From Luteitalea sp. (GTDB taxonomy: Bacteria > Acidobacteriota > Vicinamibacteria > Vicinamibacterales > Vicinamibacteraceae), in the NCBI GenBank assembly GCA_009377605.1, contig WHTT01000020.1, positions 3,394 to 27,393 of the forward strand: a DNA stretch of 24,000 nucleotides, given 5' to 3'. Within the stretch, counting starts at the first letter, position 1. Each line of letters opens with the position of its first letter. The notes below the pieces were generated by a model. That model saw only the letters and a list, made by a program, of their open reading frames with translations. It had not been told where the DNA came from and searched no databases. Shown piece by piece: positions 1-23,423 of the stretch. A program made the position numbers and the translations under genes.

Positions 1-389
1 GGGATGCCCTTCTTGCGCTCCTCGTGCCAGTGCATGTGCGTGTTGACCATGCCAGGCATGACGTACTTGCCCGTGGCATCGATGATGGCATCCGGCTGCG
101 GGGGCGGCTTCTCATCATCCTCTCGGCGATCGGTCGGGTTGGACGACTGGATGCGCGTGATGAGCCCATCCTCGATGTGGATGTTGACCGGACCAAAAGG
201 CGGCTTGCCGCTTCCGTAGATGACCATGGCGTTGCGGATCAGCAGCCGCTTGTACTGTGCGGCATGCTTGGCAGTCGTGCTCGCAGAGCCGTCTTGGTCT
301 TGTGCCTTGGTGCTGGTCTGCAGCAGCCATGACGTGACTGCAAGAAATCCCCAGAGGAGCACCCATTGCGCGCGCCGACGTCGAGCCAT
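1..389 (-). CDS. Amidohydrolase-superfamily metal-dependent hydrolase, N-terminal part (gene runs off the left edge)
   Basis: Absent from the ORF track because there is no stop in the window. ATG at 389-387 is preceded by GGAGG (399-395). My translation is MARRRRAQWVLLWGFLAVTSWLLQ (signal-peptide-like) ...LLIRNAMVIYG...IHIEDGLITRI...IIDATGKYVMPGMVNTHMHW. That is the typical amidohydrolase N-domain plus the HxH metal motif. Confidence 0.8.
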   Translation of the reverse strand, partial: MARRRRAQWVLLWGFLAVTSWLLQTSTKAQDQDGSASTTAKHAAQYKRLLIRNAMVIYGSGKPPFGPVNIHIEDGLITRIQSSNPTDRREDDEKPPPQPDAIIDATGKYVMPGMVNTHMHWHEERKKGI

Positions 390-2281: not shown

Positions 2282-2384
2282 GACCTTACGAATCGCTACC
2301 CAGCACCGTCAAATGGATTCTGCTAATCGGCCCATCACCCGCCTTCGCTTGCCTCCGGCGAGCTACGGCGAGGCAAGCCCGTTT

Positions 2385-2436: not shown

Positions 2437-2450
2437 GACTGCACTGCACC

Positions 2451-2471
2451 GTGAACGATCACGATTGTGAT
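2451..2471. promoter_or_regulatory. Overlapping short palindromes GTGA-N4-TCAC-N4-GTGA(T): candidate operator upstream of the isomerase-family gene
   Basis: GTGAACGATCAC (2451-2462) and ATCACGATTGTGAT (2458-2471) lie 13 nt upstream of ATG 2484. The arms are short, so a chance match is possible. Confidence 0.3.
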
Positions 2472-2483
2472 AGCGTGTGCACG

Positions 2484-7796: not shown

Positions 7797-8567
7797 TCAC
7801 GAGCGAGCTGTTGAGTGACACCGATCGAAGTCAGCTTGGGCGGACGAGGCCTCCACTCCTGGCCGAAGACGACCGACGAGGAGGAACGAGCGGGCTTCCC
7901 GCGCTTCGAGAAAAGGTCTGTTTGCGAAGATAGACACTGCCGACGGCAAATGGACGACCGGGACCCAGAGGTGAGGTGCCGGCCCCCAATCCTTCGTCAG
8001 ACCAGAAAAGCTTTCGGGCGCAACACCGGCAATCGCAAATGAAACGCCATTGATGCGTAGTGAACGGTCACCAAGCTCGAGGTCTTCGCCGAAATGCTCG
8101 CGCGCGAAGTCCGGGCTCACGACCGCCACGGGAGGCGCAGACACCACATCGTCTTTGGGCATGAGCAGCCGCCCTCGCGATGCTCGAAGACGAAGCAGCT
8201 CGAAGTAGTTCCCAGTGACGATTTCGGCCTGCACCTGTTCTCGCGTGCCGGTTGTGCTCTCCACATGCACGGCGACGCGGATGTACGCCGCGAGGCCCGT
8301 CAGCGACTGACTACGCTGCTGGAAGTCGCGAAAGTCCAGGAACGAAGTCCCTATATACGCATCGTCGGGCGTCCGCGAATAGATGCCGACGAGCTCGTGT
8401 GACTCGGGAACGTCAGGAAGCCTGAACAACAGGACATCGACCAGGTTGAGCACGGTCGCGGCCGTTCCGACGCCGAGAGCGAGTGAGACCGTCACGCCAA
8501 TCACCACGAGCGGGGTCTTGAGATAGCTCCGCACCGCGATCCGGACATCGGCCAGGAGAGTCTTCAT
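7797..8567 (-). CDS. ADOP-type permease, N-terminal fragment (TM1 plus MacB periplasmic core domain) of the same frameshift-split gene
   Basis: ATG 8567 (MKTLLADVRIAVRSYLKTP...) follows GAGGTGA; the track start is GTG 8576. It ends at TGA 7799-7797, in a different frame from the downstream fragment. Confidence 0.85.
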   Translation of the reverse strand: MKTLLADVRIAVRSYLKTPLVVIGVTVSLALGVGTAATVLNLVDVLLFRLPDVPESHELVGIYSRTPDDAYIGTSFLDFRDFQQRSQSLTGLAAYIRVAVHVESTTGTREQVQAEIVTGNYFELLRLRASRGRLLMPKDDVVSAPPVAVVSPDFAREHFGEDLELGDRSLRINGVSFAIAGVAPESFSGLTKDWGPAPHLWVPVVHLPSAVSIFANRPFLEAREARSFLLVGRLRPGVEASSAQADFDRCHSTARS

Positions 8568-8681
8568 GTGTCTCACCTCATGCGGATGAAATGGTGCCCG
8601 GCCTTGAGCCTCGATTGCCTACGACTCAACACGCTGATCTCGGTGCGTGAAAGACGCTGGCGCAGCAGATGTAGGAGCTCC

Positions 8682-8703
8682 GGCGGCGGCGAAAGCCGCA
8701 GCC
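8682..8703 (-). terminator. GC-rich hairpin with a GAAA/TTTC tetraloop abutting the M61 peptidase stop codon
   Basis: GGCGGCGGC-GAAA-GCCGCAGCC gives 8 bp with one mismatch. There is no clear U-tract. Confidence 0.4.
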
Positions 8704-10592
8704 TATCGATCGGTTGCCTTACTTGCCAACCAGGACTCCCGAAATGCTCGTTGCGCTTCGGTGAGGGTCCCCGCCTCTCGCTCGATCGGCACGATTGTTA
8801 GCCAAGGGTCCTCGGCCAGCTTCACCGACCGCTCGACTCGACCGGCACGGCTCTCGTACACGACGCGTACCAGGTCACCCGGCTTGCGCGCCGTCAGGAT
8901 ATTCGTCATCTGATCCGCAGCCGTGACCTCCTGGCCGTCAATCGAGAGAAGCACATCGTCGCGACCGATCCCCGCTTGATAGGCCGGCGAGCCCGCGCGT
9001 GGTGTTGCGCTCACGAAGACCTTGCCCTCTCGGAGCTCGACCTCCGGAAGGCCGAGAGTCGCATGGCCCGGATCCGCCTTCTGCAGGAGGAATCCGGCGC
9101 GCTCGAGAAGGGAAGCGTAGTCGATCTTCTCGGTGCCCTCGATGTAGCGATCGAAGAAGTCCGCCGCGAACTGTGCGTCCCCGCTGACTTCAGCCAATCG
9201 ATCTCGAGCGTCCGACAGCGTATACGGCTTGGCGACCAGTCCGGGCTCGGGACCGCCGGGCTTGCCGTGGGTGACCCACATCGCGCGCATGAAGTCGTCG
9301 AGGGTCACGCGTGAGTCCGTCCGGCTGCGAAGCGTGAGATCGAGGCCGAGGCCGAGCGCCTCGCCGAACGTGTAGTACGAATAGAACGTATTCTCCCAAT
9401 TCGTGCGGTCGGTCGCGACGGCACGATCGACGAGCGGCGCCAGGCGGCTCATGTCGACCGCCGACCGAAAGGCCGTTCCAGGACTGTGAAGAGCGCCGTT
9501 GATTACACTCTCCCACTGCGATACGCCTTCGACTTGCTCGACGATACCGGTGCGTATCAGGGCGAGCTTGCCGTAGTAGTTCGTGAATCCCTCGGCCAGC
9601 CACAGCTCGTCCGAGATGTTGACATCTTCGAAATCGAACGGCTCGAGCAACGCCGGCCTCACCCGCTCGACGTTCCAGGCATGGAAGAGCTCGTGCGAGG
9701 CGGTGCCAATCAACCCGGCGTACGCCTGGGCCAGGCCGCGAGACGAGGTGAGGATGGTGCTGTTTCGGTGCTCCATCCCGTCACCGCTTGCGTACGGTAG
9801 GTAGTCGGCGATGAATGTGTAGGTACCCGGCTCGAGCTCGGGCAGCTCACCAAAGATCGCACGCTGTTCGCGCACGATCTTCTGGACGTCGCTCACGAAC
9901 CGACCGAGCTCCTCGTCTGTCCCCGCATGGTGCATGGCCACCCGAATCGTCACTTCAGGACCGCCAGGCCGCGCGGAGACGTCGAACTCGCGGAGGGTAA
10001 AGGCGCTCAGCTCGGTGGGTGAGTCCATGAAGTACTGGAGGTTGGGTGCCGTGAACGTGAGCGCTTCGTCTGCGGGCAAGAGCTGCGTGGCGGCGCGCCA
10101 GTTCTTCCCGGTAGGTGGCACGAACGTGATGCGGACCGGCCGGCCTTCCAGACCACGCCCCCACATGAACGCCGCTGGCATGTTGATATGTGCATGTGTC
10201 TCGTCAATGGCCAGGTACGTGCCGTCGACACGGTCGCCAAAGATCCGATAGCTCACCTTCACCGTGCCGTCGTGCTTCGTGACGTGCCATTGATGCGGGC
10301 TCGGTCGTGTAACCGCCACCGACTCATCTCTCCCATCGGTGAAACGTTCCATGAATACGTTCTTCGCGAAGTCGTGTGCCGCGTAGCGTCCGGGCGACGC
10401 GCGGCTCATGCGCACCTCGAAGGATCCCGCAGGCACGTCGGGAAAGATCACGTCCACCTGCATCCAACGGTGCTCCGGCTCGGGAAAGGAAACCTGGTAC
10501 TGAATCGGCGCTTGCGAGCTCTGCGCCAAGCTCATCGAGCCGGCGACCAGTACGACAAGGGCGAGGAAAGAGAGCCGAAGACGGATACTCAT
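8703..10592 (-). CDS. M61 glycyl-aminopeptidase-family metallopeptidase with a C-terminal PDZ domain, secreted
   Basis: 629 aa. The signal peptide is MSIRLRLSFLALVVLVAGSMSLAQS. The zinc motif is HELFHAWN. The C-terminal PDZ-like segment is GSPAYQAGIGRDDVLLSIDGQEV. Confidence 0.9.
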   Translation of the reverse strand: MSIRLRLSFLALVVLVAGSMSLAQSSQAPIQYQVSFPEPEHRWMQVDVIFPDVPAGSFEVRMSRASPGRYAAHDFAKNVFMERFTDGRDESVAVTRPSPHQWHVTKHDGTVKVSYRIFGDRVDGTYLAIDETHAHINMPAAFMWGRGLEGRPVRITFVPPTGKNWRAATQLLPADEALTFTAPNLQYFMDSPTELSAFTLREFDVSARPGGPEVTIRVAMHHAGTDEELGRFVSDVQKIVREQRAIFGELPELEPGTYTFIADYLPYASGDGMEHRNSTILTSSRGLAQAYAGLIGTASHELFHAWNVERVRPALLEPFDFEDVNISDELWLAEGFTNYYGKLALIRTGIVEQVEGVSQWESVINGALHSPGTAFRSAVDMSRLAPLVDRAVATDRTNWENTFYSYYTFGEALGLGLDLTLRSRTDSRVTLDDFMRAMWVTHGKPGGPEPGLVAKPYTLSDARDRLAEVSGDAQFAADFFDRYIEGTEKIDYASLLERAGFLLQKADPGHATLGLPEVELREGKVFVSATPRAGSPAYQAGIGRDDVLLSIDGQEVTAADQMTNILTARKPGDLVRVVYESRAGRVERSVKLAEDPWLTIVPIEREAGTLTEAQRAFRESWLASKATDR

Positions 10593-10620
10593 AACTCAGA
10601 ACTCAGAACTCGGAACTCAA
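10593..10620. repeat. Four heptamer repeats AACTCAG AACTCAG AACTCGG AACTCAA filling the 24-nt intergenic gap
   Basis: Read directly. On the minus strand the units read (C/T)TGAGTT or CCGAGTT. The outermost unit supplies the ABC-chimera stop TGA (10619-10617). The array ends at the M61 ATG (10592). Confidence 0.8.
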
Positions 10621-11876
10621 GCAGCCCGAACCCAGTGCAGCATCTCGCGAAACGTCGCAGACTTACCCTGTACGAGCAGGCCAACACGAAAGATCCGGCC
10701 CGCCGCCCAGACGACGCCAGCCGCCGTGGCCACCGTGAGCACCACGGAGAGCAGCAGCTGCCAGAGCGGAGGTCCGGGCTCGAGCGCGAGCCGCACGAGC
10801 ATGAGAAAGGGCGTGAAGAACGGGATCAACGAAAGGCCCGCGGAGAGGGTGGTGTCAGGCGATTGCACCACCGAGAACACGAGCACATACGGGATGACGG
10901 CAATCATCATGGCCGGTGTCATCATCGTCTGAGCGTCGCGCAGATCCGTGCAGGCTGCGCCAATGGCCAGGAAAAGCGCTCCGAAGATGAGCAGTGTGAG
11001 CAAGAGGAAGACGGCGAACCAGCCCACGATTCGTGGCGCGAGCATGTCCCCGTATCCCAGGTAGCCGAGCGCCACTGCGGCGCCACCGAGATACACGACG
11101 GCGAGCACGATTGCCGCCCCCGCAGTGGCAAGCAGCTTCCCCCACATCAGCTCACTGGGCGTGACGGATCCGAGCATGACCTCCGCAATCCGGCTCATTG
11201 TTTCCTCGATCACCGCGTTGAGCAACTGAGGCGCCGTGGTCATCACGAACATGAAGAGCAGGATCGGCAGTCCAATTGCCGCACCGAAGCTCCGAAATCG
11301 GTCGACTTCAGTCGCCGGCCTGATACGACCCTGGGCATCGCGCTCGAGCAAGCCAAGCTGACGAAATGGGACCTCACGCAGCGCGGCGTCCATTCCCGCT
11401 TGGTCCACTTTCAACGCCTTGAACCGCTGGGCGCGTACCGCGCCATTGATTGTCGTCTCGAGCCACAACGGGAGTGGTTGATATGTGGGCTGGCTCGAGT
11501 AGTAGCCAACGGCTGCGGTGCTGCCGGCCGTCAGTGTGTCCGGCGGTATCTCGACGAAGGCAAAGAGATCGTCGCGACGGACCCGGTCCGAGAGCCGGCG
11601 CACCGTCATTTTCTTGTAGAGCCCGCGCTCTTCGGGTAGGTAGCCGACCTGATCGCGTGCCGCGCGCGCGTCGGATAGGCCGAGCACCTCGATGGCGCCG
11701 CGGTCCGGCAGCAGGATGTGCATGATCATCCTGAGCGTCGTGGTCTTGCCGGAACCGTTCGGGCCAATAAAGCCGTAGATCGAGCCCTTCGGCACCTCGA
11801 GCGACACATCGTCTACGGCCACGGTGTTACCGAAGCCCTTCGTGACGTTGCGGAGCACTATTGCTGGCGCGCTCAC
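10617..11876 (-). CDS. Chimeric ORF: the first ~93 aa of an ABC ATPase fused in frame to an N-terminally truncated ABC-2 (NatB-like) permease; probable deletion remnant
   Basis: The N-terminus VLRNVTKGFG...GFIGPNGSGKTTTLRMI...VGYLPEERGLYKKMTV carries Walker A and the Q-loop region. It then switches at ~aa 93-100 to permease sequence DDLFAFVEIPPD...IEETMSRIAEVMLGSVTPSELMWGKLLA plus about five TM helices. No ABC signature (LSGGQ) or Walker B is present anywhere in the ORF. Confidence 0.8.
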   Translation of the reverse strand: MSAPAIVLRNVTKGFGNTVAVDDVSLEVPKGSIYGFIGPNGSGKTTTLRMIMHILLPDRGAIEVLGLSDARAARDQVGYLPEERGLYKKMTVRRLSDRVRRDDLFAFVEIPPDTLTAGSTAAVGYYSSQPTYQPLPLWLETTINGAVRAQRFKALKVDQAGMDAALREVPFRQLGLLERDAQGRIRPATEVDRFRSFGAAIGLPILLFMFVMTTAPQLLNAVIEETMSRIAEVMLGSVTPSELMWGKLLATAGAAIVLAVVYLGGAAVALGYLGYGDMLAPRIVGWFAVFLLLTLLIFGALFLAIGAACTDLRDAQTMMTPAMMIAVIPYVLVFSVVQSPDTTLSAGLSLIPFFTPFLMLVRLALEPGPPLWQLLLSVVLTVATAAGVVWAAGRIFRVGLLVQGKSATFREMLHWVRAA

Positions 11877-11957: not shown

Positions 11958-13058
11958 TCACGGCTCGGGGGTCCACCACAGGTCGATGGGCCGCTCAGCG
12001 CGAGAGGCAAAGGGCAACGAGACCTTCCGGCCGGAGCCAGCGGACTGATAGGCGGCGAAGATGGCCTCGAGGACCGCACGCCCATCCTCGCCGGTGACGA
12101 GCGGTGGCCGGTCGTGCAACACGCAATCGACGAAATGCGCCATTTCCTGCGGAAAGCCATAATTCCAGGCCTCCTCGTAGACGGTGAACGACCAGCCCAC
12201 CGTCTCGCCGCCTTTCTCGACGGCGTAGTCGTAGCCAACCTCACTGTACGTCTCGATCGCGTTGCCGTGAAGTAAGTCGGCATACGCCACACCCTGCGAG
12301 CCGTGCACTTCGGCTCGGTCATCCATGCCGCCAAGCTTCGTCCAGCTCTCCTCAGCGAGGCCAGTCACGCCATCTTCGAGCTCGACCAGCAGGATCGCGT
12401 TGTCATCACCGCGTGTCTTTTCGTCGTGCACGCGCGTGTCCATGTGCGCGTATACCGAGGCAATCTTCGGCCGGCCCAGCATCCAGCGGAAGAACGCAAT
12501 CGCGTGGCATCCCATGTCCATCGTGACGCCACCGCCGGAGCGCGACACATCCCAGAAGTGCGAAGCATGCGGACCGTCGTGCTTTTCGGACTGTTTGATG
12601 AGTGTCGGTCGGCCCAGCGCGCCGGAATCGAGCAACTGTTTCAGGCGGACGTACTTCGGAGCGAAGCAGAGCTCCTCCGCGTACATGAGCTTGACGTTCG
12701 CTCGCCGGCAGGCGTCGATCATGCGGTCCGCTTCCTCCAGGTTCAGGCACAGCGGCTTTTCACACACGACGTGCTTGCCGGCGGCGGCAGCGTCACGTGT
12801 GATCGCGCAGTGGAGGTCGTTCGGTACGCCAATGACGACCATGTCGACCTCGTCCATGGCGAGAAGCGCCCGATAGTCGGTGACGTAGTGTGGGATCGCG
12901 TAACGTTCGCTGAACGCCTGGGCGTGGCCGGGGGTGGGGGAGGCGACCCCGAACAGCTCAGCATGCTTGCACCGCTGCAAGGCGTCCGCGTGGATGCTGG
13001 AGATGAATTGCGACCCGATCAGTCCGACCCTGACGCCCGTCTCGCGCCGATCCGTCAC
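11958..13058 (-). CDS. Gfo/Idh/MocA family NAD(P)-dependent oxidoreductase (cytoplasmic type)
   Basis: VRVGLIGSQFIS is the Rossmann N-terminus, and EKPL is a family motif (VVCEKPLCLN). The start is either GTG 13058, in a GTGA overlap with the upstream stop and with GGGAG 9 nt upstream, or GTG 13073 (track). Confidence 0.9.
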   Translation of the reverse strand: MTDRRETGVRVGLIGSQFISSIHADALQRCKHAELFGVASPTPGHAQAFSERYAIPHYVTDYRALLAMDEVDMVVIGVPNDLHCAITRDAAAAGKHVVCEKPLCLNLEEADRMIDACRRANVKLMYAEELCFAPKYVRLKQLLDSGALGRPTLIKQSEKHDGPHASHFWDVSRSGGGVTMDMGCHAIAFFRWMLGRPKIASVYAHMDTRVHDEKTRGDDNAILLVELEDGVTGLAEESWTKLGGMDDRAEVHGSQGVAYADLLHGNAIETYSEVGYDYAVEKGGETVGWSFTVYEEAWNYGFPQEMAHFVDCVLHDRPPLVTGEDGRAVLEAIFAAYQSAGSGRKVSLPFASRAERPIDLWWTPEP

Positions 13059-14413
13059 GGCGAGATCTCCCACCCTCGTCGGAAGTCTGGCTTGATGAGC
13101 GGGTCCGCCTCTGGGACGCCCTTCGCGCGCATGTTCTCGGCGTCCCAGTCGATCGTGCGGCCGGTCCGGACGGCCAGGAGACCGACCAGCAGCGCTTCCG
13201 TCAGCGTCGACGCGTACGCGAAATCCGCGAGCGCCCGGCCTTCACCCTTGCACGCGCGAATCCACTCCTGATGATGCCCTGTCTCGCCTCGAACCGGCGG
13301 ACGCGGGAGCGTGGATGGGATCGGTGCAGCGTCCACGAACTTCTTCCGCGGCAGCAACAGGAACATGTCCTCGTCTGTCTGCCCGCCATGCCACGTTCGT
13401 GTGAACAGCGTCCCCGTGGTGCCAATGACCAGCGAGCCGTTTGTCGGTATCGGCTCACCGTCGAAGAGATCTCGCGGGGGCTGTTGCTTGCTGGAGTAGA
13501 ACGTCACGGCAACCGAGGGGCGACGACCGCGCGCTGGGAAGGTGAGCTCGACGATCTCCCATTCGGGCGGCCCCTCCGCCGTGCGGCGCGACGAGTCCTT
13601 CAGCCGCGCCGAGACCGGCACGCCCAGCTCGAGGGCCCAGAAGGCGGGGTCGAGGTTGTGCACGCCCATATCGCCCATTGCGCCGGTGCCGAAGTCGTAC
13701 CATCCTCGCCACACGAAGGGCACATATGCGGGATGGTAGGGGCGCGACGCCGCCGGTCCAAGCCACAGGTCCCAATCGAGCGCTTTCGGCACCGGCGGCC
13801 TGTCTTGGGGGCGCTCCACGCCTTGTGGCCACCACTCGGCCGGGCGATCGGTCCACACGTGAATCTCGGTCACCTCTCCAATGACCCCCGCTCGAATGGT
13901 CTCGACGGCGCGCCGCGAGCCCTCGAGCGCATGCCCCTGCGTTCCCATCTGCGTCACGACACCCGCCTCGCGCGCGACGTTTCTCATCATGCGAGCTTCC
14001 CAGATCGTGCGCGTCAGCGGCTTCTCGCAGTACACGTGCAGTCCCCGGCGCATGGCGGCAATCGATGCGGCCGCGTGGACGTGATCCGGCGTGCTCACCA
14101 CGACCGCGTCGAGCGCCTTTTCCGTATCGAGCATGCGGCGGAAGTCGCGGTAGCGGCGGACCTGCGGGTAGCGGGCAAACGTCTTGGCCGCCTGTCTCTC
14201 GTCGACATCGCACAACGCGACGATTTGCTCGCTGCTCACGCCGGCAAGATTATCCGCGCCCCGGCCGCCAGCACCGATGATGCCGATCGCGAGCTGGTCG
14301 CTCGGTGCCACGCGGCGACGGCCAGGTTGGGCTAGGGGACGGCCCGCAACAGAAACGCTCGCCGCGGCAAGCGCCGCGCCGCGCAACAACTCTCGCCGCG
14401 TGAGATCAGCCAT
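13055..14413 (-). CDS. Gfo/Idh/MocA family oxidoreductase with a Tat signal peptide (periplasmic type)
   Basis: MADLTRRELLRGAALAAASVSVAG is the Tat motif. It is followed by IGIIGAGGRG and YCEKPL. ATG 14413 has AGGTG 5 nt upstream; the track start is GTG 14416. The gene lies 15 nt downstream of the selenoprotein-candidate stop. Confidence 0.9.
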   Translation of the reverse strand: MADLTRRELLRGAALAAASVSVAGRPLAQPGRRRVAPSDQLAIGIIGAGGRGADNLAGVSSEQIVALCDVDERQAAKTFARYPQVRRYRDFRRMLDTEKALDAVVVSTPDHVHAAASIAAMRRGLHVYCEKPLTRTIWEARMMRNVAREAGVVTQMGTQGHALEGSRRAVETIRAGVIGEVTEIHVWTDRPAEWWPQGVERPQDRPPVPKALDWDLWLGPAASRPYHPAYVPFVWRGWYDFGTGAMGDMGVHNLDPAFWALELGVPVSARLKDSSRRTAEGPPEWEIVELTFPARGRRPSVAVTFYSSKQQPPRDLFDGEPIPTNGSLVIGTTGTLFTRTWHGGQTDEDMFLLLPRKKFVDAAPIPSTLPRPPVRGETGHHQEWIRACKGEGRALADFAYASTLTEALLVGLLAVRTGRTIDWDAENMRAKGVPEADPLIKPDFRRGWEISP

Positions 14414-14428
14414 CACTGCACCTGAGCG

Positions 14429-15076
14429 CTAAGAGGCCTCGAGACCCGCAAGAATCTGCTCGACATACTGGGCCTCGGGCAGCGCTCCCAGAATCTCGCC
14501 ATGGCCGTTGACGATGGTCTTTGGCACACCTGTGACCTGATACTGCCGCACCAAGTCCGGGTAATCGACCGCGGAAATGGAAGACGCTCGGATGAGGGGG
14601 CTTTCGAGCGCGAGGCGGTTTGCCAGGGCGACCGCCCGGGGACAGTGAGGTCAGGTCGGCGTCGAGAAGACCTGTAAGTGGAGTGCCTCGGTGAGCCCAA
14701 CCAGCCGCTGCCGTGTCGTCGCCGAGAGCCCGGAATCGTTCGCGGACACGGCAAGGATGGCATCGAGCAGCGACACCAGCTCGTATCCTTCCGGCGCCCC
14801 GTAGAAGCGGACTCCGGGATCGGTCTCCCCAACAACGGCAACGGCCGGCGCGCGCTCGATGCCCATCGTCTCGGCCAGTCCTTTGTCGAGCAGCAGGTCG
14901 TGCTCGTCGACGGTCACCAACGGGCTGGCCGCCGCCAGGCCGTCGAGGATGCCCTTGGTTGCAGGGCAGCTTTCGCAGTCGAGGGACTGCGTGAAGAAGG
15001 TGAGGCGGACAGGCGACTGGAGCGATTGCAGCCGGTCGGCGAGGACTCGTGCATCCGGATCGGAAAAGTACGCCAC
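14429..15076 (-). CDS. Two-domain thioredoxin-fold protein disulfide oxidoreductase (PDO/glutaredoxin-like) with in-frame TGA 14653-14651 read as selenocysteine (UPHC motif)
   Basis: The track ORF 14651-15076 stops at ...LHLQVFSTPT-TGA. The same frame continues as PHCPRAVALANRLALESPLIRASSISAVDYPDLVRQYQVTGVPKTIVNGHGEILGALPEAQYVEQILAGLEAS and ends at TAG 14431-14429. The N-domain has CESC (aa 34-37). A SECIS-like hairpin lies 11 nt after the TGA. Confidence 0.75.
14623..14639 (-). promoter_or_regulatory. Candidate bacterial SECIS element (17-nt hairpin with a GGUC apical loop)
   Basis: The RNA reads 5'-CCGGGC GGUC GCCCUGG-3': a 6-bp stem, one bulged U and loop GGUC. The loop starts 18 nt after the UGA. 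In E. coli fdhF, as I recall it, the minimal SECIS is GGUUGCA GGUC UGCACC with the loop at +19. Confidence 0.6.
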
Positions 15077-15287: not shown

Positions 15288-15947
15288 ATGAGCCAAATCT
15301 TTCCGAAGAGTGCGAACGCGTGGGCCCGGTTCTCACTGTTCGGCTTGCTGCTGCTCATCGTCCTAGGGGCGTGGGCGATTCTCCTTCTGCAGCGGTCGGA
15401 CTTCGTCACAGCGGCCCGAGCCAACGTGCAGCAGCCGATTCAGTTCAGCCATCTTCACCACGTCGGCGGCGAGGGATTCGACTGCCGCTACTGTCACACA
15501 TCGGTGGAGAAATCGGCATTTGCCGACATCCCGTCGACCAAGATCTGTATGAATTGCCATTCGCAGATCTGGCTGGAGAGCCCATATCTGGAGCCTGTGC
15601 GCGAGAGCTTCAAGACCGGGCAGTCGATCGAGTGGATTCGCGTGCACGACTTGCCCGACTTCGTCTATTTCAACCACAGCATCCACGTGAACAAAGGCGT
15701 TGGTTGTGAGACCTGCCATGGCCGCGTCGACGAGATGCCCGCCATGCAACAGGTGGCCTCGCTACAGATGGAGTGGTGCTTGGATTGCCACCGCCGGCCG
15801 GAGCAATATCTCCGGCCCCGCAGCCAAGTCACCGTGATGGGTTACGAGCCGGAAGGCGACCAGCTCGAGATCGGTCGGCGCTTGAAGCAGGAGTACAAGG
15901 TGCTGGATGCGCAGACGCTGACGTCCTGCTCGACGTGCCATCGGTAA
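15288..15947 (+). CDS. actA: Alternative Complex III subunit ActA, membrane-anchored pentaheme cytochrome c
   Basis: Has an N-terminal TM helix and five CxxCH motifs (CRYCH, CMNCH, CETCH, CLDCH, CSTCH). It is first in an actABCDEF-ordered cluster. Confidence 0.9.
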   Translation: MSQIFPKSANAWARFSLFGLLLLIVLGAWAILLLQRSDFVTAARANVQQPIQFSHLHHVGGEGFDCRYCHTSVEKSAFADIPSTKICMNCHSQIWLESPYLEPVRESFKTGQSIEWIRVHDLPDFVYFNHSIHVNKGVGCETCHGRVDEMPAMQQVASLQMEWCLDCHRRPEQYLRPRSQVTVMGYEPEGDQLEIGRRLKQEYKVLDAQTLTSCSTCHR

Positions 15948-15968
15948 CAAGTTCTTGAAGCGAGAACG

Positions 15969-18900
15969 ATGTCCAACCTCGATCCATCGGCCCTCCGGGC
16001 CCGGCTCGCCTCGACCGACGGTCCCACGTATTGGCGCAGTCTCGAAGAGCTCGCTGAGACCGAGGAGTTCCGGCGGCATCTCCAGCGTGAGTTCCCGGCC
16101 ACGGCGGCCGAGCTGAGCGACCCGCAAGGGCGGCGGACGTTCCTCAAGTTGATGGGGGCGTCGATGGCGCTTGCTGGTGTGACTGCGTGCACGCGCCAGC
16201 CCGCTGAGAAGATCATTCCGTATGTGAATGCGCCCGAAGAGCTCGTGCCCGGCAAGCCGTTGTTCTACGCGACGGCGCTGCCGCACGGCGGCTTCGCGAC
16301 ACCCGTCCTGGTGGAGAGCCACGAGGGGCGGCCCACGAAGGTCGAGCCCAACCGGGATCACCCGGCCACGCGCGGCGGGACGGACGTCTTTGCGCAGGGC
16401 TCCATCCTCACGCTCTACGACCCCGACCGATCGCGCGCCATCAAGGAATACGGTGAGATTCGCTCGTGGGATGTGTTCGTGTCGCGGATGCAGACGGCAA
16501 TCGCGGCGCAGAAGGCGGCGCAGGGGAGCGGGTTCCGCTTGCTGACCGAGTCCGTCACGTCGCCGACGCTCGGAAGGCAAATCGAGGAGCTGCTCAAGAC
16601 GCTGCCGGGCGCGAAGTGGGTGCAGTACGACGCCGTCTCGCGCGACAACGCTCGCGCCGGTGCCCGGGCAGTGTTCGGCCGTGACGTCGAGACACGCTAT
16701 CGACTCGAGCAGGCGGACATGATCCTGTCGCTCGACGCGGACTTCATCGAGGAGGGGCCCGGGCGCCTTGCCTACGCGCGGGCGTTCACCGATCGGCGAC
16801 GGTTGATCGACGGCCAGACGGACATGAACCGCTTGTACGTCGTGGAGAGCCGGCTGACCAACACCGGCGCCAAGGCGGATCATCGGTTGGCGGTGCGTGC
16901 GTCGGACGTCGAGCACGTGGCGCGGGCGGTCGCGGCGACGCTCGGTGTCGCTGGCGTGGCCGCATCGGCGTTGCCGAGCGGTGTAGAGGAGCCATGGGTC
17001 GTCGCGCTGGCGCGTGATCTCTCCGCGCACCGCGGGCGCTCGGTCGTCGTGGCCGGCGACCATCAACCGGCGGTCGTCCACCAACTCGCCCACGTCATGA
17101 ACGCGGCGCTCGGCAACGTGGGGCAGACCGTGGAGTACACGGCAGCGGTGGAGATGCGCCCGCAGATCCAGGTCGAGGCGCTGCGTGAGCTCGCCGGAGA
17201 AATGGCCGCCGGCACGGTGGAGGTGCTGGTCATGATCGGCGTCAATCCCGTCTACACGGCGCCCGTCGACCTCCAGTTCGGGGAGCGGCTGAAGAAGGTC
17301 CCGGTAGCCGTGCACGTGGGGCTGTTCGAGGACGAAACGGCGCCGTACTGTCGGTGGCACGTGCCGGAGGCGCACCCGCTCGAGGCGTGGAGTGATCTGC
17401 GGGCTTTCGACGGGAGTGTGACCATCTGTCAGCCGCTCATCGCGCCGCTCTACGAGAACAACAAGTCGGCCCACGAAGTGGTGGTTGCCTTCACGAGCAA
17501 CCCGACGCAAGGAGGGGCGGAGATCGTCAAGGCGTTCTGGCAGGCGGAGGTCACGACCCCGTCGGGTCGGTTCGGCAGCCTCACCAACGTCGATGGCCAG
17601 CCCTTTCCCAGCTTCGACGCTTTCTGGCGCCAGGCGCTCCATGACGGATTCGTTGTCGGGAGCGCCCTGCCGGCCGCGGAGGTGACGACCTCCGGACCGG
17701 TGCCGCCCCCCTCACGTCCAGGGAACACCTCGGCCGTCGAGATCACCTTCAGCGCGGATCCAACCGTGTACGACGGGCGCTTCGCGAACAACGGCTGGTT
17801 GCAAGAGTGCCCCAAGCCATTCAGTAAAGTGGTTTGGGACAACATCGTCGTCATGAGCCCTGCGATGCGGGAGCGATTGGGGCTCCCAAGGCCGGACGTG
17901 CTCGAGCAGTGGGCGCCGTTGGTGACCGTGAGATGGAAGGGGCGGGAGATCACTGGTCCGGTTCGCGAGCAGCCGGGCCATCCGGATCATTCGATCAATG
18001 TGCAGCTCGGATACGGACGCACGCGCGCGGGCCAGGTCGGGAACGGTGTCGGCTACAACGCGTATCGCATTCGCACTGCCGACGAGCCCTGGTTCGGGAC
18101 GGGCGCGGAGATCGACTCGACGGGGGAGTCGTATCGCCTCGCGGCCACGCAGATGCACTTCCAGATGGAAGGGCGCAATCTCGTGCGCGGCACGTCGCTG
18201 ACGCAGTATCAAGGAGATCCGGCGGTCGCCCAGCACCTCGAGCACGTGCCGCCGTACGAGGAGACGCTGCACGGTAACGAGTGGAAGTACGACGAGGGCT
18301 ACGCCTGGGGCATGGCCATCGACCTCAACGCGTGCACCGGGTGCAACGCGTGCGTGGTCGCCTGCGTGGCGGAGAACAACATCTCCGTTGTCGGCAAGCA
18401 CGAGGTGGTCATGGGCCGCGAGATGCACTGGATTCGGATCGACAACTACTACGAGGGCAGTCCGGACGGCCCGCACGCGGTCGAGACGCAGCCCGTGCTG
18501 TGCATGCAGTGTGAGAACGCGCCCTGCGAGGTGGTGTGCCCCGTGGCGGCGACGACGCATAGCAGCGAAGGCCTCAACGACATGGTCTACAACCGCTGCG
18601 TGGGCACGCGGTACTGCAGCAACAACTGCCCGTACAAGGTGCGGCGGTTCAATTTCTATCTCTACTCGGACTGGAACACGCCGACGCTCAAGATGGCGCG
18701 GAATCCCGACGTCACGGTGCGCAGCCGCGGTGTGATGGAGAAATGCACCTATTGCGTGCAGCGTATCAACGCCGGGAAGATCCAGGCAGAGCTCGAGGAT
18801 CGTGTCGTGCGCGATGGCGAGATCGTCACCGCCTGCGAGTCCGCCTGCCCGACGCGCGCCATTACGTTCGGCAACATCAACGATCCCGAGAGCCGCGTGG

Positions 18901-19043
18901 CCAAGCTCAAAAAGGAGCCGCGAAACTACGGGCTCCTGGAGGATCTGAACACGCGGCCGCGGACCACGTATCTCGCGGTGGTACGGAATCCGAATCCGGA
19001 GCTGGCGCCGGAGGAAGAGCCGGCTGCGGGGCACCATGGATAG
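15969..19043 (+). CDS. actB: Alternative Complex III subunit ActB (molybdopterin-oxidoreductase-like domain fused to a 4-cluster FeS domain), with Tat motif
   Basis: 1024 aa. YWRSLEELAETEEFRRHLQREFP is followed by RRTFLKLMGASMALAG. C-terminal ferredoxin-type motifs are CTGCNACVVAC, CMQCENAPCEVVCP, CVGTRYCSNNCPYKVRRFN and CTYCVQR...ACESACP. Confidence 0.92.
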   Translation: MSNLDPSALRARLASTDGPTYWRSLEELAETEEFRRHLQREFPATAAELSDPQGRRTFLKLMGASMALAGVTACTRQPAEKIIPYVNAPEELVPGKPLFYATALPHGGFATPVLVESHEGRPTKVEPNRDHPATRGGTDVFAQGSILTLYDPDRSRAIKEYGEIRSWDVFVSRMQTAIAAQKAAQGSGFRLLTESVTSPTLGRQIEELLKTLPGAKWVQYDAVSRDNARAGARAVFGRDVETRYRLEQADMILSLDADFIEEGPGRLAYARAFTDRRRLIDGQTDMNRLYVVESRLTNTGAKADHRLAVRASDVEHVARAVAATLGVAGVAASALPSGVEEPWVVALARDLSAHRGRSVVVAGDHQPAVVHQLAHVMNAALGNVGQTVEYTAAVEMRPQIQVEALRELAGEMAAGTVEVLVMIGVNPVYTAPVDLQFGERLKKVPVAVHVGLFEDETAPYCRWHVPEAHPLEAWSDLRAFDGSVTICQPLIAPLYENNKSAHEVVVAFTSNPTQGGAEIVKAFWQAEVTTPSGRFGSLTNVDGQPFPSFDAFWRQALHDGFVVGSALPAAEVTTSGPVPPPSRPGNTSAVEITFSADPTVYDGRFANNGWLQECPKPFSKVVWDNIVVMSPAMRERLGLPRPDVLEQWAPLVTVRWKGREITGPVREQPGHPDHSINVQLGYGRTRAGQVGNGVGYNAYRIRTADEPWFGTGAEIDSTGESYRLAATQMHFQMEGRNLVRGTSLTQYQGDPAVAQHLEHVPPYEETLHGNEWKYDEGYAWGMAIDLNACTGCNACVVACVAENNISVVGKHEVVMGREMHWIRIDNYYEGSPDGPHAVETQPVLCMQCENAPCEVVCPVAATTHSSEGLNDMVYNRCVGTRYCSNNCPYKVRRFNFYLYSDWNTPTLKMARNPDVTVRSRGVMEKCTYCVQRINAGKIQAELEDRVVRDGEIVTACESACPTRAITFGNINDPESRVAKLKKEPRNYGLLEDLNTRPRTTYLAVVRNPNPELAPEEEPAAGHHG

Positions 19044-19070
19044 GCGAGGACCTGCTGACGAGGTCGAACC

Positions 19071-20459
19071 TTGCTAGAGAAAGCAAAGCACTTCGATCCC
19101 CCCGAGACGCGCTTCATCGCGCCGGGGCATACGTTTGGCAGCATCACCGAGAAGATCACGTCGGCGGTCTTGACCAAGCGAACGCCGATCAGCTGGTTCA
19201 TCGGCTTCGCGGTCGGCTTCGGGTTGCTGCAGGCGCTGATGTTGGGGGCGACCTGGCTCTTGATGCGCGGCGTCGGGCTGTGGGGGATCAATCAACCGGC
19301 GGGCTGGGGCTTTGCCATCATCAACTTCGTCTGGTGGATTGGCATCGGCCACGCGGGCACGCTCATCTCGGCGATCCTGCTCCTCTTCAACCAGAAGTGG
19401 CGGATGTCCATCAGTCGCGCCGCCGAAGCCATGACGATCTTCGCGGTGATGTGCGCAGGGCTGTTCCCCATCTTGCACACCGGCCGCCCATGGCTTGCCG
19501 CCTACTGGCTGTTTCCATACCCGAACGCCATGTCCCTGTGGCCGAACTTCCGCAGTCCGCTCATCTGGGACGTGTTCGCGGTGTCGACGTATTTCACGGT
19601 CTCGCTGGTGTTCTGGTACACAGGCCTCATTCCAGACCTGGCCTCTCTGCGTGATCGCACGAAGCATCGCCTCTTGCAACTGTTCTACGGGGTGCTCTCG
19701 CTGGGCTGGCGCGGGTCGGCGCGCGACTGGCAGCGCTATGAGCTCGCATCGCTCCTCTTGGCTGGCCTTTCGACGCCGCTGGTCCTCTCCGTGCACACCG
19801 TGGTGAGCTTCGACTTCGCGACCAGCCTCATCCCGGGCTGGCACGCGACGATCTTTCCGCCGTATTTCGTTGCGGGCGCCATCTACGCAGGCTTTGCGAT
19901 GGTGCTGACGCTGATGATTCCCTTGCGGCGCATTTACGGCTTCGAGGACTTCGTCACCATTCGGCACCTCGACAACATGGCGAAGGTCATGTTGGCCACC
20001 GGGCTGATCGTGTTCTACGGCTATCAGATGGAGGCGTTCTTCGCTTGGTACAGCGCCAACCCGTACGAGTGGTTCATGATGACGAACCGGTGGACGGGTC
20101 CCTATGCATACCTGTACTGGACGCTGATCTTCTGCAACGGCGTGGCGCCGCAGGCGCTGTGGTTCAAGAGGTTTCGCACGAAGCCGCTTCGGCTGTTCGG
20201 CATTTGTATGTTCGTCAACGTCGGCATGTGGCTCGAGCGCTTCATCATCGTGCCGACCAGCCTCAGTCGAGACTTCCTGCCCTCCTCGTGGGGCATGTAT
20301 CACGGCACGGTGTGGGACTGGATGATCTTTGTCGGCACGATGGGCTTGTTCCTGACCTGCTTCTATCTGTTCATTCGCGTGCTGCCGATGCTGTCCATCT
20401 TCGAGATGCGCACGCTGTCGCCGGCGGCGACGCCGAAAGAGGAGTCCAGCCATGTCTGA
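19071..20459 (+). CDS. actC: Alternative Complex III subunit ActC (NrfD/PsrC-like integral membrane quinol-binding subunit)
   Basis: 462 aa and polytopic, with NrfD-like motifs (WGxxIxxFVWWIGIGHAGTLISA). The TTG start at 19071 has GAGG 7 nt upstream. Confidence 0.9.
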   Translation: MLEKAKHFDPPETRFIAPGHTFGSITEKITSAVLTKRTPISWFIGFAVGFGLLQALMLGATWLLMRGVGLWGINQPAGWGFAIINFVWWIGIGHAGTLISAILLLFNQKWRMSISRAAEAMTIFAVMCAGLFPILHTGRPWLAAYWLFPYPNAMSLWPNFRSPLIWDVFAVSTYFTVSLVFWYTGLIPDLASLRDRTKHRLLQLFYGVLSLGWRGSARDWQRYELASLLLAGLSTPLVLSVHTVVSFDFATSLIPGWHATIFPPYFVAGAIYAGFAMVLTLMIPLRRIYGFEDFVTIRHLDNMAKVMLATGLIVFYGYQMEAFFAWYSANPYEWFMMTNRWTGPYAYLYWTLIFCNGVAPQALWFKRFRTKPLRLFGICMFVNVGMWLERFIIVPTSLSRDFLPSSWGMYHGTVWDWMIFVGTMGLFLTCFYLFIRVLPMLSIFEMRTLSPAATPKEESSHV

Positions 20460-21018
20460 GGACGCCACGCGCGCGGCGGAGACGGGGGCGTCACTCTACG
20501 GCCTGATCGCGGAGTTCGAGACGGTCGACAAGCTGCTGGCGGCCGCACGGCGCGTGCACACGGAGGGCTTCCGCAAGATCGACGCCTACACGCCTGCGCC
20601 GGTCCATGGGCTGGCCGAGGCGATGGGCTACAACGATCGACGGCTCTCGCCGCTCACGTTGGCCGGCGGAGTCGCCGGCATGCTGGCCGGCTTCATGCTG
20701 TGTTACTGGACGTCGGTCATCGATTACCCGATCAACACCGGCGGGCGGCCGCTCAACAGTTGGCCTGCGTTCATCGTGCCGACGTTCGAGACGACAATCC
20801 TGTTTGCCGCACTGAGCTGCTTCGTTGGCCTGATCGTGCTCTGCGGATTTCCGCAGCCGTACCATCCGGTCTTCAACGTGCCGGCGGTGCGGGAGCGCGC
20901 CACGAGCAGCGGCATGTTTCTGGCGATCGAGGCGGAGGATCCACGATTCGATCGCACGGCCACGCGGCAGTTGCTCGAGACCGCAGGTGCGAAGGACGTG
21001 TATGAAGTCGAGGCGTGA
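20452..21018 (+). CDS. actD: Alternative Complex III subunit ActD (DUF3341-type membrane protein)
   Basis: 188 aa. Starts YGLIAEFETVDKLLAAARRVHTEGFRKIDAYTP and has two TM helices. The ATG overlaps the actC stop by 8 nt. Confidence 0.88.
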   Translation: MSEDATRAAETGASLYGLIAEFETVDKLLAAARRVHTEGFRKIDAYTPAPVHGLAEAMGYNDRRLSPLTLAGGVAGMLAGFMLCYWTSVIDYPINTGGRPLNSWPAFIVPTFETTILFAALSCFVGLIVLCGFPQPYHPVFNVPAVRERATSSGMFLAIEAEDPRFDRTATRQLLETAGAKDVYEVEA

Positions 21019-21021
21019 TCT

Positions 21022-21699
21022 GTGTCTACCTGTGTCCATCTACGGATCAACCCATTTGTGCTCATGCGTCGACGACTGTTGATGGGCGCCGTGCTCGTCG
21101 CTGTGGTCGTGGGCGGCGTGGCCTGTCGACAGGATATGCACGACACGCCGCGCTTCGAGCCACTCGAGGAGAGCGACTTCTTCTCGGACAAGCGCTCGGC
21201 GCGCCCCCTGCCGGAGGGGACCGTCGCGCGCGGCGAGCTGCGGGCCGACGAGGCCTTTTACACCGGAAAGGTGAACAATCAACCAGTGGCCGAGCTGCCC
21301 ATGCCTCTGACGCGCGACCTCGTGGAACGCGGGCGCGAGCGCTTCGATATCTATTGCTCGCCGTGCCACGGGCACACAGGTGAGGGACAAGGGATGGTCG
21401 TCAGGCGCGGCTTCAAGGAGGCGGCATCGTTTCACGACCCGCGGTTGCGCGGCATGCCCGTGGGCTACTTCGTGGATGTGATGACCAATGGGTTCGGCCA
21501 GATGCCGGACTACAGAACGCAGGTCACCCCGCGCGATCGTTGGGCGATTGCCGCGTATATCCGCGCGCTGCAGTTGAGCCGCAGCGCCACCGCCGATGAC
21601 GTGCCCGCCGAAGAGCGGCAAAAGCTGGAGACCGGCCAGGCCCCCGATGCTTCCAGCTCGTCGCACCAGGCGGAGGAGGAACCGACCTCCCATGAGTGA
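21022..21699 (+). CDS. actE: Alternative Complex III subunit ActE, monoheme cytochrome c
   Basis: Has a single CSPCH motif and a downstream Met ligand region (GFGQMPDY). The start is GTG 21022 (GAGG 8 nt upstream) or ATG 21064, which gives MRRRLLMGAVLVAVVVGGVAC, a possible lipoprotein signal. Confidence 0.85.
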   Translation: MSTCVHLRINPFVLMRRRLLMGAVLVAVVVGGVACRQDMHDTPRFEPLEESDFFSDKRSARPLPEGTVARGELRADEAFYTGKVNNQPVAELPMPLTRDLVERGRERFDIYCSPCHGHTGEGQGMVVRRGFKEAASFHDPRLRGMPVGYFVDVMTNGFGQMPDYRTQVTPRDRWAIAAYIRALQLSRSATADDVPAEERQKLETGQAPDASSSSHQAEEEPTSHE

Positions 21700-22873
21700 G
21701 ATTCGCCCGGAGTCGTTCCAGGTTCCACCCGGCGTCGACCGCATCCAGCGCGCGGCACTCGGGCTCGGCGTCGTCGGCCTGTTGCTGACGATCGTTGGTG
21801 CGTTCGTCGACACGGAGCAGTTCTACCGTTCGTATCTGCTCGGCTATATCTTCACGCTCGGCGTTCCGATGGGCTGCCTCGCCCTGCTGATGATCCAACA
21901 TCTCACAGGCGGCGGCTGGGCCGTCTCGACGCGGCGCACGCTCGAGGCGGCCGCGCGGACCATCCCCTTCATGGCGTTGCTCTTCGTGCCGATCGCGTTC
22001 GGGCTATCGCACCTCTATGAATGGACGCACGCCGAGCTCGTGGCGACCGACAGGGTCCTGCAGTGGAAGGCGCCGTATTTGAACGCACCGTTCTTTCTCG
22101 TTCGCGCGGCGATCTATTTCGCCGTGTGGACCGCCATCGCGCTGCTGCTGAGCAAATGGTCGCGCGAGCAGGATACGACCGGCCGCGACGACGTGCGGCT
22201 GCGCATGGTGAGTGGGCCCGGTATCCTCGTCTTTGGGCTAACGATCACCTTGGCCTCGGTCGATTGGGTGATGTCGCTCGATCCTCATTGGTACTCGACG
22301 ATCTTCGGGCTCCTCTTCATGGTGAGCGAAGGCCTGTCCGCGCTGGCCTTCGTCATCCTCATGACGTTCTTCTTGAGCCGTACGCCCGAGATGAGCCGTG
22401 TGCTCACGCCGAAGAAGTTCCACGATCTCGGCAAGCTGCTGCTTGCCTTCGTGATGCTCTACGCGTATCTGGGCTTCTCCCAATTCCTGCTGATCTGGTC
22501 GGCGAACCTGCCGGAAGAAGTCGGCTACTATCTCATTCGGGCGCGCGAGCGTTGGCAGTGGCTCAGCCTGCTCGTGATTGTCGGGCACTTCGCCTTCCCG
22601 TTCTGTCTGCTGCTGCTGCGCGATCTCAAGCGTCACGCGAGCCGCCTCGCTCTGCTGGCCATCATCATCCTCGCGATGCGCTTCCTCGAGACCTTTTGGC
22701 TCGTGGTCCCCAACTTTGGTGATCCGGCCACGTTGCATTGGCTGGATGTCACGACCGCCGTCGGTATCGTGGGCTTGTGGCTCGGGGCATTCTGCTGGAA
22801 CCTGAAGGGACGCGCGCTCTTGCCGGTCGGCGATCCGTACCTGGAGGAGGCTTTGGCCGATGGCCACCACTGA
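21692..22873 (+). CDS. actF: Alternative Complex III subunit ActF (second NrfD-like membrane subunit)
   Basis: ATG 21692 (MSEIRPESFQVPPGVDRIQ...) has GGAGGAGGA ~11 nt upstream and overlaps the actE stop (ATGAGTGA). The protein is polytopic. The track start 21596 is an Arg-rich extension inside actE and is rejected. Confidence 0.88.
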   Translation: MSEIRPESFQVPPGVDRIQRAALGLGVVGLLLTIVGAFVDTEQFYRSYLLGYIFTLGVPMGCLALLMIQHLTGGGWAVSTRRTLEAAARTIPFMALLFVPIAFGLSHLYEWTHAELVATDRVLQWKAPYLNAPFFLVRAAIYFAVWTAIALLLSKWSREQDTTGRDDVRLRMVSGPGILVFGLTITLASVDWVMSLDPHWYSTIFGLLFMVSEGLSALAFVILMTFFLSRTPEMSRVLTPKKFHDLGKLLLAFVMLYAYLGFSQFLLIWSANLPEEVGYYLIRARERWQWLSLLVIVGHFAFPFCLLLLRDLKRHASRLALLAIIILAMRFLETFWLVVPNFGDPATLHWLDVTTAVGIVGLWLGAFCWNLKGRALLPVGDPYLEEALADGHH

Positions 22874-23423
22874 TCCACACGAGACGGAGATCGTCCCGCA
22901 CCCTGACCGAAGGTCTTCGCATGGCACCACCTCGGAAGGCCCGAGCCATGGCTCGAGCTCAGGGGTGCCGGCCGACGGCGGTCACGAGCGGTCGGATGTC
23001 GACGTTTCGCGCTCGCACTGGGTGGTGATTGGCTCGGCCGTGTTCCTCGCGGTCGTCATGGCCGCCATGTGGCTGATGTTTCGATGGATGGAAGGCCGGC
23101 TCGCGTCGGCAGATCAACCGTTGCCGATCGTGACCGAGCGCCAGGCGGGCCAAGATCGGCAGCCGCCCGAGCCGCGCCTGCTGGTCGACGAGCCGGCAGA
23201 CCTGGCAGGCGTTCGAGAAGATGAAGCCGCGGTGCTCAACAGCTATGGCGTGGTCGATCGAGCTCAGGGCTCGTGGCGTGTGCCGATTGACCGTGCGATG
23301 ACGTTGCTCGTCGAGCGCGGCGTGCCGACGTCACCGCGGGCAGCCTCCGCACCGCCGTCGAACGGAGCCGCCGGGAGCCCCGCCCCGGCGATTGCGAGGA
23401 CGAAAGGCGCAGCCGAACAGTAG
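22860..23423 (+). CDS. Single-TM membrane protein translationally coupled to actF; function unknown (possible ACIII or oxidase accessory subunit)
   Basis: ATG 22860 has GGAGGAGG upstream and overlaps actF by 14 nt. The protein has a hydrophilic His/Ser-rich N-terminus, a TM helix (WVVIGSAVFLAVVMAAMWLMF) and a C-terminal segment LNSYGVVDRAQGSWRVPIDRAMTLLVERGVP. Confidence 0.75.
   Translation: MATTDPHETEIVPHPDRRSSHGTTSEGPSHGSSSGVPADGGHERSDVDVSRSHWVVIGSAVFLAVVMAAMWLMFRWMEGRLASADQPLPIVTERQAGQDRQPPEPRLLVDEPADLAGVREDEAAVLNSYGVVDRAQGSWRVPIDRAMTLLVERGVPTSPRAASAPPSNGAAGSPAPAIARTKGAAEQ

Follow-up and report, generated by a model that had tools for sequence, protein, structure and literature searches.

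A conserved GGUC-loop hairpin downstream of an in-frame UGA as a probable selenocysteine insertion element in a thiol-disulfide oxidoreductase gene of Luteitalea sp. and related Vicinamibacterales

In Escherichia coli, fdhF's minimal selenocysteine insertion sequence (SECIS) lies within the coding sequence directly 3' of the UGA codon, after an 11-nt spacer, and SelB contacts G23 and U24 of its apical loop (PMC8659212). In broader terms, the bacterial SECIS (bSECIS) model of bSECISearch (Zhang & Gladyshev 2005, summarised in PMC13188914) retains hairpins with (i) a loop of 3-9 nt, (ii) an upper stem of 4-16 bp, (iii) one or more G among the two opening loop positions, usually with G or U next, (iv) a UGA-to-loop distance of 16-37 nt, and (v) a folding energy of -7.5 kcal/mol or below (PMC13188914). 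On the protein side, the motif type UxxC is listed for the TIGR02187 selenoprotein family (PMC13188914), an AhpF N-terminal-domain homolog containing selenocysteine (Sec) was reported in Carboxydothermus and Symbiobacterium (Zhang et al. 2006, PMC1794560), and Sec users are documented in Acidobacteria (PMC1794560; PMC12013277), while a literature search for selenocysteine in Vicinamibacteria returned no specific report. The present analysis deals with a stretch of 24,000 nucleotides, hereafter the window, from the acidobacterial genome of Luteitalea sp. (contig WHTT01000020.1), and more precisely with a short hairpin (14639..14623, minus strand) located immediately downstream of an in-frame UGA in the gene of a thiol-disulfide oxidoreductase, which is very probably a bacterial SECIS directing the read-through of this UGA as Sec.

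Read in the sense of the gene, the minus strand is ...ACGCCGACC UGA CCUCACUGUCC CCGGGC GGUC GCCCUGG CAAACCGCCU..., i.e., codon by codon, UUC UCG ACG CCG ACC UGA CCU CAC UGU CCC CGG GCG GUC GCC CUG GCA AAC CGC CUC, and the 17-mer CCGGGCGGTCGCCCTGG occurs as a single copy in the window, at 14623-14639 on the minus strand. The features concerned are as follows, positions with a plus sign being counted from the UGA:

14640..14650, minus strand: spacer CCUCACUGUCC of 11 nt (codons Pro-His-Cys-Pr...), separating the UGA from the hairpin base, as long as in E. coli fdhF
14639..14623, minus strand: candidate SECIS hairpin CCGGGC-GGUC-GCCCUGG, with the 5' arm at 14639..14634 and the 3' arm at 14629..14623
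14633..14630, minus strand: apical loop GGUC, at +18..+21 after the UGA
14625, minus strand: unpaired U+26, in the 3' arm of the hairpin
14613..14619, minus strand: 3' arm ACCGCCU of an alternative stem, pairing with 14637..14631 (GGGCGGU) and mutually exclusive with the hairpin

An earlier note, made from the letters of the window, had given the sequence and coordinates of this hairpin, its 11-nt spacing and the location of GGUC at +18..+21, all of which are exact in the minus strand; the fdhF element given for comparison proved equally accurate, since the UGA followed by 11 nt and GGUUGCAGGUCUGCACC (matched as TGA, CACGGCCCATC and GGTTGCAGGTCTGCACC) was recovered without mismatch, under fdhF, in 5419 of 5426 E. 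coli genomes. Both elements sit in coding sequence just behind the UGA with the same spacer length, and both are 17-nt hairpins that have 6 bp, a single unpaired U and an identical GGUC tetraloop, so that the equivalents of G23 and U24 are present in the window. The differences are that (i) the loop starts at +18 instead of +19, (ii) the stem is GC-rich and is not prolonged by an extended lower stem back to the UGA, and (iii) the unpaired U belongs to the 3' arm (U+26), the pairs being C-G, C-G, then G-C, G-C, G-C and C-G around GGUC, whereas in fdhF it belongs to the 5' arm, where bulged U17 is essential and a SelB contact in E. coli; the window hairpin has no such U. Because the U lies on the opposite arm, the bulged-U likeness that had been drawn with fdhF is superficial; in about 80% of the orthologues U+26 is paired and the loop has 5 nt (GGUCA or GGUCC). 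By analogy, then, the window element would work like an fdhF-type SECIS and is not a structural copy of it. Respective to the bSECIS model nothing essential differs: a 4-nt loop beginning with GGU is carried by a stem of 4 bp, an unpaired U and 2 bp, 17 nt separate the UGA from the loop, and the energy, i.e., -7.8 kcal/mol for the isolated 17-mer and -8.5 to -9.4 kcal/mol in context, passes the threshold by a small margin, although the model is too permissive in this GC-rich family to tell Sec from Cys forms.

The gene that carries the element was delineated by translation, and the redox motifs of its product were located by translation and, for the N-terminal one, alignment A1:

15076..14429, minus strand: selenoprotein gene, with a GTG start at 15076, the Sec-UGA as codon 142 and a TAG stop at 14431..14429, for 215 residues
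14653..14651, minus strand: in-frame UGA (residue 142), opening the C-terminal redox motif U-P-H-C (14653..14642)
14966..14977, minus strand: CxxC of the N-terminal domain (C34-E-S-C37)

With U set to C in the query, the read-through product reaches 221.5 bits against NCBIfam TIGR02187.2 (PDO_seleno_TRX, protein disulfide oxidoreductase), above the equivalog cut-off of 185, and the match spans the UGA, residues 8-209 covering profile positions 4-207 of 209. Two thioredoxin folds are recognised, CESC being in the first and U-P-H-C in the second, and the Pfam Thioredoxin_3 and Glutaredoxin matches both fall in the part of the product that follows the UGA. In 21 Cys homologues the column of the UGA is the invariant first Cys of CPHC, U-P-H-C aligning on the C142/C145 columns. 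As such, the product is most likely a cytoplasmic-type protein disulfide oxidoreductase, homologous to the N-terminal domain of AhpF (TIGR02187), in which the attacking Cys of the C-terminal CxxC is replaced by Sec. The published selenoproteins of TIGR02187, i.e., those of Carboxydothermus hydrogenoformans (ABB15282.1), Symbiobacterium thermophilum and Asgard archaea, have the same two thioredoxin folds and C-terminal UxxC; what distinguishes the window protein is its lineage, namely the Vicinamibacterales (Acidobacteriota), where the Sec form is the majority and apparent ancestral state in the sample described below. The deposited annotation stops at the UGA: it corresponds to P0001, "hypothetical protein GEV06_08760 [Luteitalea sp.]", of 141 aa with the C-terminus ...FSTPT, identical to the window translation except for the start residue (Met in P0001; Val in the raw translation of GTG). 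The sampled Sec-form orthologues are truncated likewise in public protein sets, with five fragments of 141-142 residues among the top matches. In three orthologous loci, the C-terminal thioredoxin-fold piece is found as a separate small ORF (open reading frame) of 49-88 aa (L002:2837-2998, L003:3451-3717 and L004:1459-1608), with a weak Thioredoxin_3 match in two of the three, and the N-terminal 141 residues are called as another protein.

For comparative purposes, four truncated matches and the 80 best matches to the Sec-form query, with one genome per species, were reduced to 83 non-redundant loci, almost all from Vicinamibacterales or Acidobacteriota metagenome-assembled genomes (MAGs). Three of them, 46-49% identical to the window protein, are binned elsewhere: L070 (JBLMXQ010000130.1) and L082 (CAZOIK010000234.1), from Betaproteobacteria and Bifidobacteriaceae bins, look like mis-binned acidobacterial contigs, and L073 (JACQVC010000102.1) comes from a Gemmatimonadetes bin. 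The codon at the site of the UGA is TGA in 72 of the 83 loci and TGC or TGT in the remaining 11. Beyond the TGA, 55 codons are free of in-frame stops in all 72 distinct sequences, and nucleotide diversity among the Sec forms amounts to 0.18, 0.18 and 0.44 at the first, second and third codon positions, respectively. Because this downstream region is stop-free and shows the diversity pattern of translated sequence, the UGA is decoded in the Sec-form lineages and is neither a nonsense mutation nor an assembly error; taken with the full-length TIGR02187 match, this bears out the view of the earlier note that a plain nonsense mutation was not at stake.

The evidence that carries the SECIS reading comes from the conservation of the hairpin among these Sec forms. 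In alignment A2, which gathers 65 distinct Sec forms, the region of the hairpin is gapless and the hairpin is consequently at the same position in all of them. Codons that could vary synonymously are frozen there, namely Arg at +13..15 (CGG in 37/37), Ala at +16..18 (GCG in 66/70), Val at +19..21 (GUC in 68/71) and Ser at +22..24 (AGC in 59/59), although local codon usage has CGG and AGC in the minority (25% and 32%, respectively). Third-position entropy is 0-0.3 bit in the hairpin vs 1.0-1.8 bits in flanking codons for Ala, Arg, Pro, Thr and Val, and third-position diversity is 0.25 within the hairpin vs 0.47 elsewhere downstream. Across the 65 distinct sequences, the helix common to the family joins +12..+17 to +23..+28, is 90.3% paired and closes a 5-nt loop, GGUCA in 52 sequences and GGUCC in 5. 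The compensatory changes across orthologues that the earlier note had proposed to look for do exist: the pair +13/+27 passes from C-G to A-U in 7 sequences and +17/+23 from C-G to U-A in one, while +14/+26 is G.U in 36 sequences and A-U in 29, and none of 500 shuffles matched the observed pairing or covariation score of this helix. The changes link codons, A at +13 (Lys AAG) being accompanied by U at +27 (Leu CUU) in 7/12 sequences vs 0/53 (p=1e-6), and Pro CCG by Leu CUC in 14/15 vs 1/50 (p=4e-12); in the latter combination, the lower helix shifts to a 7-bp register with U+26 bulged. De novo prediction by RNAalifold placed a hairpin at the same spot, and neither RNAalifold nor the stem test gave any other conserved structure within +1..+45.

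Three helix registers are thereby encountered, i.e., a continuous helix with a 5-nt loop, a 7-bp helix with a bulged U, and a 4-nt loop with a bulged U. The last, which is the form originally described, holds as a variant of the small clade of the window (the window, L001, L002 and L004), where Ser AGC is replaced by Ala GCC, and fails as a description of the family, of which it leaves only 53.6% paired. What remains constant is the start of the loop at +18, where the sequence is nearly always GGUC, on a stem of 6-7 bp in the family. Accordingly, the fdhF-like placing of a GGUC-loop hairpin after the UGA was borne out as a feature conserved in Sec forms.

Comparison with the Cys forms completes this picture, the hairpin being conserved with compensatory changes in Sec orthologues and relaxed in Cys orthologues. 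GGUC is present at +18..21 in 67/71 Sec forms vs 4/11 Cys forms (p=2.4e-5), G+18, which is a synonymous site, is kept in 66/70 vs 5/11, and the mean energy of the hairpin closed at +17 is -10.7 kcal/mol in Sec forms vs -5.9 kcal/mol in Cys forms (p=6e-4). On a neighbour-joining tree, rough as it is based on 75 residues, parsimony places Sec at the root of the sample and counts at least 5 independent switches from Sec to Cys, after which the element decayed in most cases, the usual changes within clades being GCG to GCC or GCU, GUC to GUG, or altered stem codons. Fossil SECIS-like structures are known from Cys homologues descended from Sec forms (Zhang et al. 2006, PMC1794560, Fig. 4), and it is three orthologues, not the window, that resemble them: the hairpin of L007 (L007:1923, TGC) does not differ from the one in its Sec sisters L008, L011 and L012, and the Cys forms L038 and L051 keep GGUCA and the stem. 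These look like fossil SECIS elements left by a recent replacement of Sec by Cys. The generic bSECIS criteria, in our own implementation, were tried as a means of telling Sec from Cys forms and dropped: 68/71 Sec forms pass, and so do 10/11 Cys forms somewhere downstream, which makes them weak evidence in DNA of 65% G+C.

Several observations weigh against a SECIS and have to be set beside the comparative data. As regards folding, the isolated RNA has a minimum-energy structure other than the hairpin, an outcome that the earlier note had named as refuting the element, as it had the presence of the hairpin in Cys orthologues; folding z-scores are about 0, and in a 48-nt context the hairpin pairs with a probability of about 2%, the alternative stem with one of about 60%, even if the hairpin's upper stem and loop are present in the local minimum-energy fold. 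The peptide itself favours a hairpin, since the amino acids PRAVAL dictate 3 of the 6 pairs as well as G+19 and U+20 of the loop; when the same peptide is recoded synonymously with local codon usage, 30% of the recodings reach a hairpin of -7.5 kcal/mol or below at this place, and 7% have a GGUC loop in addition. Rfam returned nothing relevant, either for the whole window at the gathering threshold or for 14400-14900 at E-values up to 10. No selA, selB or selD was found in the 24-kb window with Pfam and NCBIfam, nor any tRNA or tRNA-Sec with ARAGORN, the window covering only a part of the source genome. To these are added the retention of the hairpin in the three Cys forms mentioned above, the passing of generic criteria by nearly all Cys forms, and the relatedness of the orthologues by descent, by which sequence counts exceed the number of independent events. 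Single-sequence folding was nonetheless treated as uninformative for a 17-nt element bound by a protein, the minimal hairpin of E. coli fdhF itself reaching only -4.2 kcal/mol by ViennaRNA. The hairpin is not beyond chance on the single sequence, and it is far beyond chance across the 65-72 distinct Sec-form orthologues; the case for a SECIS rests on the comparative data, not on thermodynamics. These data outweigh both the non-minimum-energy fold and the hairpin-bearing Cys orthologues, because most Cys forms have lost GGUC, the keepers look recently converted, and the synonymous constraint is specific to Sec forms.

The same observations feed the competing explanations. The hairpin could simply follow from the codons for P-R-A-V-A-L-A, the genome being GC-rich, in which case another element would direct Sec insertion or the hairpin would have no role at all; the pairs and loop bases fixed by the amino acids and the frequency of stable recodings agree with this, as do the occurrence of the peptide CPHCPRAV.LA in common among Cys homologues and the folding of Cys forms at the same place (L072 at -13.9 and L082 at -13.3 kcal/mol). 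Yet the synonymous sites of the hairpin are invariant only in Sec forms, and with non-preferred codons (CGG, AGC), the synonymous G+18 is kept in Sec forms and often lost in Cys forms, synonymous sites 15 nt apart covary, and no other conserved structure appears within +1..+45, all of which renders this explanation very improbable. It might otherwise be supposed that the functional SECIS is the alternative stem, i.e., 14637..14631 with 14619..14613 (+14..+20 with +32..+38 in UGA numbering) around an 11-nt loop, or, as a variant, that a regulatory toggle operates between the two conformers. This 7-bp stem, to which the earlier note had drawn attention, is indeed present in the sequence and thermodynamically preferred there (-10.4 to -12.6 kcal/mol vs -8.5 kcal/mol for the hairpin in the 48-nt context), and the window and its four closest relatives show C-to-U changes that keep G.U pairs. 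As a conserved element, though, it was rejected for want of covariation support: its pairing reaches 70.8% over the 65 Sec forms, but compensatory changes are absent and 500/500 shuffles do as well, its pairing derives from His/Asn-Arg codons while the clearly synonymous partner site +36 is unconstrained (1.45 bits), it is missing from the "HEMAF" clade, and the conserved GGU would be hidden within its helix. We consider it highly improbable as the SECIS; a competing fold specific to the clade of the window is possible.

The remaining explanations deny Sec insertion altogether. Were the UGA a true stop, whether by nonsense mutation, in a pseudogene or through a sequencing error in a MAG, only the 141-residue fragment would be made, exactly as the deposited annotation has it; we give next to no credence to this account, given that the same TGA is found in 72 loci of different species-level genomes and metagenomes, in alignment with a catalytic Cys and ahead of an intact frame under purifying selection. 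Downstream hairpins can stimulate stop-codon read-through in general, and it is conceivable on that ground that read-through of the UGA involves neither SelB nor Sec but, for example, near-cognate insertion of Trp or Cys or a reassigned code, the hairpin merely slowing the ribosome. TGA is however the usual gene terminator in the window, where the GFO/IDH/MocA, M61 and alternative complex III (ACIII) genes end normally, and the code is therefore not reassigned; moreover, it is the redox Cys that is recoded, in a family of which Sec members are known, and the loop motif and the spacing match the SelB-dependent element of fdhF, so that read-through of this kind is extremely unlikely.

If the hairpin is a SECIS, as is very probable, SelB binding and Sec insertion would proceed by analogy with E. 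coli fdhF. When the UGA reaches the A site, the hairpin, 11 nt downstream, would stand just outside the mRNA entry channel, where the C-terminal winged-helix domains of SelB would bind G+18, G+19 and U+20 of the apical loop; the complex of SelB, GTP and Sec-tRNA(Sec) would thus be tethered at the A site and the UGA decoded as Sec rather than read by release factor 2 (RF2), Sec taking the attacking position in the UxxC redox centre. Overprinted on the codons Pro-Arg-Ala-Val-Ala-Leu-Ala of a conserved peptide, the element owes about half of its base pairs, together with G+19 and U+20, to that peptide and the remainder to selection on synonymous sites, namely at the third positions of the codons for Pro, Arg, Ala, Val, Ala/Ser and Leu.

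Both the SECIS mechanism and this selenoprotein family were already known; what is added is that their occurrence in Vicinamibacterales is widespread and systematically mis-annotated. Going further, we tentatively propose, while leaning slightly to the opposite view, that the Sec form is ancestral and dominant across this abundant soil order, where it has gone unrecognised as gene callers truncate it at the UGA, and that its SECIS tolerates the three helix registers with GGUC fixed at +18. Should the first part be true, it would imply a selenium requirement in these bacteria; should the second, the cognate SelB would read only the loop at a fixed distance and could dispense with the bulged U essential in E. 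coli. The data suggest, at any rate, the use of selenium in Vicinamibacterales, a common soil lineage. With the mechanism being textbook matter, the practical value is mainly for annotation, a 215-residue selenoprotein being recorded as a 141-residue hypothetical protein, and for ecology. Besides, the orthologues constitute an unusually clean series of natural mutagenesis, with frozen sites, compensatory pairs, register shifts and decay after the change to Cys, which could train selenoprotein predictors for GC-rich genomes, in which generic SECIS criteria fail to discriminate.

As regards its surroundings, the selenoprotein gene is divergent from an ACIII operon (15288-23423, plus strand, with further ORFs after ActD) and is followed on its own strand by two oxidoreductase genes:

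15288-15947, plus strand: ActA-like multihaem cytochrome
15969-19043, plus strand: fused ActB, with a twin-arginine translocation (TAT)-variant signal
19071-20459, plus strand: NrfD-like ActC
20452-21018, plus strand: ActD
11958-13073 and 13055-14416, same strand as the selenoprotein gene and downstream of it: two GFO/IDH/MocA oxidoreductases, the second with a twin-arginine signal
8703-10592, minus strand: M61 glycyl aminopeptidase bearing a PDZ domain

Upstream of the orthologue, 14 of 73 loci have a multihaem cytochrome ORF, and the M61 peptidase gene is directly downstream on the same strand in 34 of the 52 loci scanned (e.g., L019, about 2200-3570, plus strand), while in the window it is separated from the selenoprotein gene by the two GFO/IDH/MocA genes, both described as TAT-type, and an ABC gene. 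No functional link of these neighbours to the selenoprotein gene is evident. A scan of the window for other TGA-interrupted frames was too noisy in DNA of 64% G+C. As for the other ORFs, that antisense to ActB (15762-17642, minus strand, 626 aa) has no Pfam or NCBIfam match and is probably spurious, as is common in 65% G+C DNA. In the 419-aa ORF at 10617-11876 (minus strand), residues 22-111 match the first ~95 positions of an ABC ATPase domain and residues 98-392 an ABC-2 permease; this is an unusual fusion or else two genes joined through a frameshift or deletion between them. Finally, the adjacent ORFs 6086-7762 and 7797-8576 (both minus strand), which are in different frames and both match MacB_PCD, the second also matching FtsX, look like a single large MacB/ADOP-type permease split by a frameshift or an assembly error.

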